DNA of 64,000 nt from Eledone cirrhosa (Eukaryota), in assembly GCA_964016885.1 (NCBI GenBank), contig OZ024756.1, positions 30,504,001 to 30,568,000 on the forward strand, read 5' to 3'. Position numbers and translations under genes: made by a program. Each line of letters opens with the position of its first letter. Within the stretch, counting starts at the first letter, position 1. Positions 57,627 through 57,892 of this stretch are shown here, piece after piece. A model generated the notes under the pieces. That model was not told where the DNA came from, ran no database searches, and saw only the letters and a list, made by a program, of their open reading frames with translations.

Positions 57627-57892
57627 AAAAAGTATGACCCCGACGGGGTCATACTTTTTCCTATTTCCCACTCTGCTACCCTAAGTATTGAGTACTCTGG
57701 TGCATTATAGTCCATCTGGTTCCTTACCACAATTCCTTTGTTATATATATATATATATATTTCCGGTTGGTTGGTTCCACAACCAGATGATTGTTCACAT
57801 ATTGTCAACATGACCCTCCCAAAGTATAACAATATCGGTTGCAACACACGTTTTCAGATAAAGAATCTTGCTAAACAAATTCAGAAACGAAA
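57627..57892 (+). mobile_element. Adjacent short fold-back elements: family A (57627-57742) and family D (57760-57892)
   Basis: AAAAAGTATGACCCC-GAC-GGGGTCATACTTTTT plus family A tail; then inverted D piece joined to D 3' end and tail. Confidence 0.85.

Follow-up and report, generated by a model that had tools for sequence, protein, structure and literature searches.

Two inverted-repeat junctions in this region had been noted as coinciding with predicted hammerhead ribozyme cleavage sites, which raises the question of whether they record ribozyme activity in living cells. The window, by which we mean the whole 64-kb stretch of DNA analysed, is part of a 3.0-Gb genome, is A+T-rich and carries (TA)n throughout. 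Self-comparison reveals several short repeat families, in which head-to-head pairs are frequent. The letters A and D are kept from the initial annotation, B and C were assigned in the present analysis, and positions are numbered per family with +1 as the base directly 3' of the predicted hammerhead cut. An apparent tandem duplication of ~5.2 kb at about 2300-12700 repeats part of the window (4182-4378, for example, is identical to 9382-9578); the A and B copies within it are therefore counted once. The window also contains a ~190-nt repeat (2-296, 14543-14736, 18138-18723 in tandem, 19295-19632, 27238-27431, 48073-48506 and 59288-59475), a tandem array with a period of ~107 bp (54087-54623) and an inverted pair of another repeat (56098-56248 and 56624-56774) with a hammerhead-type core word in each copy.

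The flagged family A insertion belongs to subfamily A1. Its inverted arm (57622-57646, minus strand) extends from +20, beside (TA)n, to a position between -2 and -5 (57643 to 57646). The sense arm (57644-57744, plus strand) starts between -1 and +3 and reaches +100, comprising the 3' strand of helix I and a one-sided tail (+21 to +100). Together the arms form a perfect 15-bp hairpin (57627-57641 with 57645-57659) with a 3-nt loop and a fold z-score of -7.2. The predicted cut of the sense arm lies between 57644 and 57645, and GGGGTC does start at 57645, as had been reported, but the CGG microhomology at 57644-57646 is assignable to either arm. Comparison with a full-length A copy places 57642-57643 (positions -1 and -2) necessarily in the inverted arm, which thus overruns the cut by at least 2 nt and by as many as 5. 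At most, then, the sense arm of this copy would have ended at the cut. Among A1 rows outside the cut class, the 3-nt-loop form is found in 4 of 86, for which a microhomology null is sufficient (p 0.88), while in the sister subfamily A2 it exceeds that null (12/45, p 0.009). Given the A2 excess, a link between this form and cutting is possible, and we regard it as conceivable, if rather doubtful, that the window A junction reflects a ribozyme cut.

A (TA)n target (57745-57759) separates this insertion from the family D copy. The inverted arm of the latter is a fragment (57760-57808, minus strand) that lacks the usual outer part. It had been described as reaching 57807 with a CAA microhomology, and our comparison agrees: the arm ends at 57807 (+1) or 57808 (-1) of the predicted cut, with CAA at 57806-57808. 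The sense arm (57806-57892, plus strand) consists of the 3' part and tail, ends in (TA)n and does not overlap the inverted arm. The two arms span different parts of the element, and the copy is not a fold-back as had been proposed. Both share an 8-of-9-nt homology (57800-57808, which includes the CAA), so the join is explained without a cut. Genome-wide, 25 loci join a D inverted arm to the sense stretch seen in the window. Tallied by eye, three have the window junction and three cross one base earlier within the same 8-of-9-nt homology, while one reaches -1 through another join, one ends at -6 and 17 end at +4 to +19. It appears very unlikely that the window D junction reflects a ribozyme cut. 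Elsewhere in the window, a 1,093-nt inverted repeat (52276-53353) is formed by two long family D arms that both traverse the predicted cut.

Both flagged junctions are most likely ordinary microhomology joins. These two copies are weak evidence, and it is at several hundred other loci that the idea of a cleavage footprint is, on comparative grounds, borne out for family A.

Family A has the layout of an endonuclease-bearing (EN+) Penelope-like element (PLE). Its fragments have two preferred ends: among 60 fragments in 864 kb, 23 end at +20 and 29 at +97 to +100. Insertions combine an inverted, 5'-truncated copy with a one-sided tail. A typical long two-arm insertion in the window (4376-4589, plus strand) has arms that extend ~35-41 nt beyond the cut, and the arms of three others (12335-12567, 50371-50595 and 53731-53981) also pass it. 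At L022/L446 the pLTR continues into a single broken ORF with what we take to be reverse transcriptase (RT) motifs, followed by a VIY..YIG motif, presumably GIY-YIG-like, with Cys/His residues. Atlas neighbours of this ORF at 0.95-0.96 carry HTH_animal (29-55%) and GIY-YIG (21-27%); with a decayed copy as the query, no Pfam family and no PDB relative was found. Families B, C and D are putative PLEs by their two-arm layout, tails and (TA)n targets. A non-LTR retrozyme, made of tandem non-coding hammerhead units, was considered and rejected: the copies in the window are two-arm fragments that occur singly and lack the 5' core, and a coding master exists for family A.

A type I hammerhead fold fits the full-length A copies, with 93% of cells paired over three helices in 22 copies, compared with 26-58% when the same fold is slid out of register. 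The G10.1-C11.1 and A15.1-U16.1 pairs are invariant, the triplet preceding the cut conforms to NUH, and core position 7 takes all four bases between fixed neighbours. Covariation is weak, in that one pair has changed on both sides and 10-50 of 500 shuffles reach the scores. The core departs from the canonical C3-G8: U3-A8 is present in all scored copies of A1 (9/9) and A2 (11/11), and nine scored A3 copies have C3/A8 (six) or U3-A8 (three). The C3/A8 mismatch, which is predicted to impair cleavage, occurs in ~27 of the first 100 of 4,562 full-length A copies and is concentrated in A3. An Rfam hammerhead search gave no hit at the gathering score in the window and no hammerhead among 134 matches up to E 5 at five loci that contain full-length copies of A or D. 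In A2 and A3, helix III comprises 6 bp, and in A1 it comprises 5 bp. This long helix III is found only in family A, and the equivalent helices of B, C and D have 2 bp, a type described in the relevant sections of Cervera and de la Pena (2014, PMC4209133) as inactive as monomers in vitro.

The main end of family A arms lies upstream of the cut, at about -41. Among 101 arms from random, window and other non-selected loci, 66 end between -47 and -29 and two within 3 nt of the cut. At 60 further loci, chosen by their outer end alone, 65 of 102 arms end between -45 and -33 and six within 2 nt of the cut. In both arm samples the alignment script may overshoot tight hairpins, and ends at the cut are then under-called. 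Genome-wide, 8,906 arms end at the A of -41 and 7,266 at -40. In the first 100 rows for each position, the base that precedes -41 is G 57 times, C 33 times and A 10 times, and ahead of -40 there are 16 G, 38 C and 46 T (both counted by eye; G versus C contrast, p 1.3e-4). About 22 of the 57 Gs before -41 possibly derive from the partner arm, and some loci carry the extra base on both arms. The -41 site resembles what we take to be the initiator consensus. Penelope has been reported to have an internal promoter with an initiator (PMC2377424), and full-length or capped ends of L1 to carry an extra G (PMC11702581), according to the parts of these papers compared here. Position -41 is thus likely to be a capped transcription start within the ribozyme, in the loop of helix II. 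From such a start, ordinary transcripts would lack the 5' half of the ribozyme and be unable to cut themselves. We also considered -41 as a splice acceptor; the excess of G better matches a cap.

A distinct class of family A insertions ends both arms at the predicted cut, with nucleotide precision and genome-wide. Two-arm junctions were listed with anchors at +9 on both arms and at most 30 nt between them, which in A2 covers symmetric junctions up to about -7 upstream. Most tallies were made by eye on the first 100 listed rows, drawn from the first contigs. A2 gives 469 short two-arm loci, and both arms end at +1/+2 in 55 of the first 100. A script check returned 16 of the first 30 loci, far above a microhomology-weighted null of 0.6-2.8% for this class (p 1e-17). 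The other rows include the 3-nt-loop form (12), one arm at the cut (8) and other symmetric positions with at most two each. About 30 of the 55 both-arm cases are blunt or decayed from blunt, and 25 carry 1-7 extra bases. In these 25 the arms stop at +1 (two at +2), and the extra bases are mostly A/T or local copies. In several A2 and A3 junctions the insert is a copy of sequence a few bases away, presumably as expected of polymerase-theta-type joining.

The class is present at different rates in the three subfamilies. Both arms end at the cut in 25 of the first 100 of 270 A3 rows, and only ~17 rows extend 2 nt or further beyond it; these are by-eye counts, the junction script having mis-scored A3-type copies (1/10 both-arm). 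For A1 the count is 14 of the first 100 of 110 rows. With outer ends as the denominator (22,574 for A2 and A3, of which 40 of the first 100 rows are A3, and 5,644 for A1), the class makes up ~2% of A2, ~0.75% of A3 and ~0.3% of A1 insertions, rough figures given that anchor lengths differ. A separate search estimates ~840 arms at +1, on the basis of 36 true junctions in the first 100 of 2,337 rows, against ~8,300 at -41. At these ~36 true +1 junctions, the partner arm also ends at +1 in ~16 and at the main site in 4-5 (by eye). This is the reverse of what independent arms would give, and both arms therefore likely copied one RNA. Single-arm searches in A1, which demanded a long partner arm and thereby excluded the both-arm class, showed no cut peak: of 97 rows scored (100 of the 125 listed, less three internal deletions), four have a sense arm that begins at +1, with a mean of 3.5 per position. 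Sense starts peak instead at +9 and -9, positions at which the partner arm has microhomology, and inverted ends are scattered over 87 rows.

By sequence comparison, cut-class insertions are independent events. A2 junctions are varied, and an 81% flank repeat is common to only one pair among 40 loci. Repeated copying of a single master hairpin was rejected on the same grounds, as junctions and subfamily marks differ. The class is likely to be a DNA record of hammerhead cleavage in living cells.

Other origins of an end at +1 have to be weighed against cleavage. RT might stall on uncut RNA at the foot of the G+C-rich helix III; the length of this helix follows the same order as the class rates, being longer in A2 and A3 than in A1, and A3 has the class despite its many C3/A8 cores. 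A stalled enzyme, however, would copy the unpaired C17 and stop at -1, whereas the insert-bearing junctions stop at +1, and among 100 A2 rows none has both arms at -1 with an insert. In RNA with its start at -41, helix III is predicted to lose out to another hairpin, and a shared template end is needed for both arms to stop together. Stalling is, on balance, an unlikely source of the class. Less probable still is the later collapse of long palindromes between short repeats (CG, CGG), leaving hairpins that end at the cut by chance. The ~30 blunt cases in A2 are CCCC/GGGG joins that a 2-nt microhomology could also produce, and the 3-nt-loop form of the window is a 3-nt microhomology product; collapse suits the window A copy well. 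It is unable to yield the 25 insert-bearing junctions, and the null share of the blunt form is at most 1.6%. Cut-class copies are not detectably older than long copies (median divergence from one reference 2.7% versus 1.4%, 15 versus 11 loci, p 0.33). The same repeats are present in A1, where the rate is far lower, and the palindromes of C and D are without the class. An RNA end at +1 could also arise from a second, minor start of transcription or from a site cut by a host nuclease, and ~4 of the 55 A2 junctions have an extra G or C beside the G run (by eye). Yet extra G is rare at +1 compared with -41, and the end matches the hammerhead bond to the base, in a conserved fold, which makes this the least probable of the alternatives.

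The broader proposal, that in families A, B and D alike the template 5' end is set by cleavage and that both window copies are footprints of it, draws on the both-arm class and the 3-nt-loop excess of family A and on partial signals in the other families. In B, the cut is reached by both arms in 9-10 of the first 51 of ~103 two-arm loci (p 0.003 against a 6% null), and of 98 ends 10 lie at +1 (100 of 274 rows, two dropped). In a further B sample, 6 of 97 ends lie at +1 (100 of 382 rows, three dropped), which is the mean rate, and the B cut lies in an AT palindrome conducive to such joins; a B cut peak is weak and confounded. In D, one arm ends at -2 to +1 in 8 of 49 two-arm loci, but both arms end at +1 in none of the 49. 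The ends near the cut are flat, with three at +1, three at -1 and six at -2 in the first 100 of 499 rows, where 3-5 are typical, and homology explains the window join. In C, both arms are at the cut in none of the first 50 of 62 loci. With the main A end at -41 and the window A inverted arm running past the cut, the broader proposal is highly improbable. Genome-wide junctions set against a null, the check that had been suggested, thus place the A class above expectation and give B a weak peak and D and C none. The footprints claimed for three unrelated families come down to a strong signal in A, above all in the sister subfamilies of the window copy, a weak one in B and none in D. The underlying idea, that ribozymes active in vivo set the template 5' end, would hold for the genome-wide A class, but neither as a general rule nor for these copies.

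Families B and D have end clusters of their own. The insertion at 4182-4378, presumably the family B case of the initial annotation, has an inverted arm that ends at -1/-2; with its identical duplicate (9382-9578) it represents one event. B 5' ends pile up near -120, with 7 of 20 fragments at -119/-120, a position that depends in part on the reference copy; an extra G is present there in a few of the listed rows. In D, ~26 of the first 100 of 499 rows end at +5, inside an AT repeat; about a quarter of near-cut D ends thus stop in this repeat, beside (TA)n, and it may be a secondary target of the endonuclease or a microsatellite undergoing expansion. By eye, the D 5' ends of L002, L113, L139 and L148 seem to gather ~75-90 nt 5' of the cut, near what we take to be a YY1-like motif, and this cluster is a possible start site.

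We propose, with reasonable though not full confidence, that two-arm insertions arise when both DNA ends prime on one RNA, which in family A usually has the capped -41 start and in 0.3-2% of insertions is hammerhead-cut. A pair of cDNAs joined end to end describes the arms better than a fold-back does. The endonuclease would cut both strands of a (TA)n target, and the two DNA ends would prime reverse transcription at +20 and +100 of one RNA. Both cDNAs would extend to the 5' end of this common RNA, where RT may add C opposite a cap, or A/T at an uncapped end, before the cDNA ends are joined bluntly or via microhomology. Most templates would start at -41, the putative cap site. The whole ribozyme would be present only in read-through RNA that enters the pLTR from upstream, and the 3' product of its hammerhead cleavage would be the minor template that gives the +1 class. 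The further reading, that the element disables its own ribozyme by the internal start, that capped and hammerhead-cut RNAs are both retrotransposed and that an exact in vivo record of U3-A8 cleavage results, seems to us somewhat better than an even prospect.

In vivo evidence for PLE hammerheads was stated to be absent in the sections of Cervera and de la Pena (2014, PMC4209133) compared here. Hundreds of insertions at the predicted bond would constitute a DNA readout of cleavage. If the proposal is true, cleavage rates are readable per subfamily, at about 2%, 0.75% and 0.3%. The cut-class junctions name the bond and rank the subfamilies for assay, and the paired arm ends inform how the inverted copy of PLE insertions arises. 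In the main texts consulted, with subscription literature mostly outside this set, we did not find a published study in which the arm junctions of PLEs are mapped to a capped start or a hammerhead cut.

Family A closely resembles the EN+ PLEs of Craig et al. (2021, PMC8557442) as described in the sections compared, with a pLTR, an inverted truncated 5' copy, a one-armed tail, microsatellite targets and RT followed by a GIY-YIG-type domain. Its tail is longer, at ~80 nt versus 30-40, and its arms meet at the putative capped start or the hammerhead bond, a meeting point that is not mapped in those sections. The Anolis Poseidon element PAc (Frangieh et al. 2024, PMC11167929), in the parts considered, is like family A in that both DNA strands are cut and extended, from two internal RT starts that flank the tail, with a hammerhead just upstream. 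PAc cleavage is reported there to be protein-dependent and not to be required for insertion in vitro, and RNA-seq gave no read with an end at the cut. In contrast, a minor class of genomic family A insertions ends at the predicted cut. The PLE hammerheads covered in the compared sections of PMC4209133 are likewise type I, located in the pLTR and with a palindromic loop 3, and the U3-A8 core corresponds to a published PLE variant reported in Schistosoma; the helix III of family A, with 5-6 bp, is unlike that of the minimal, dimer-dependent PLE motifs.

The closest parallel for a ribozyme written into DNA is the HDV-like ribozyme of R2 (Eickbush et al. 2013, PMC3774820), in which, according to the portions consulted, the cut position also marks genomic 5' junctions. 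The normal 5' end of R2 is the product of its ribozyme, whereas in family A the ribozyme would account for a minor class, at a junction between two cDNAs. Twin priming in L1, as presented in the parts of PMC11702581 compared, is similar to family A in that the inverted arm results from a second primer on the same RNA. In contrast, the L1 arms copy adjacent, nearly non-overlapping stretches of RNA and those of family A copy the same 5' stretch. The D copy in the window, with its non-overlapping arms, is closer to the L1 case.
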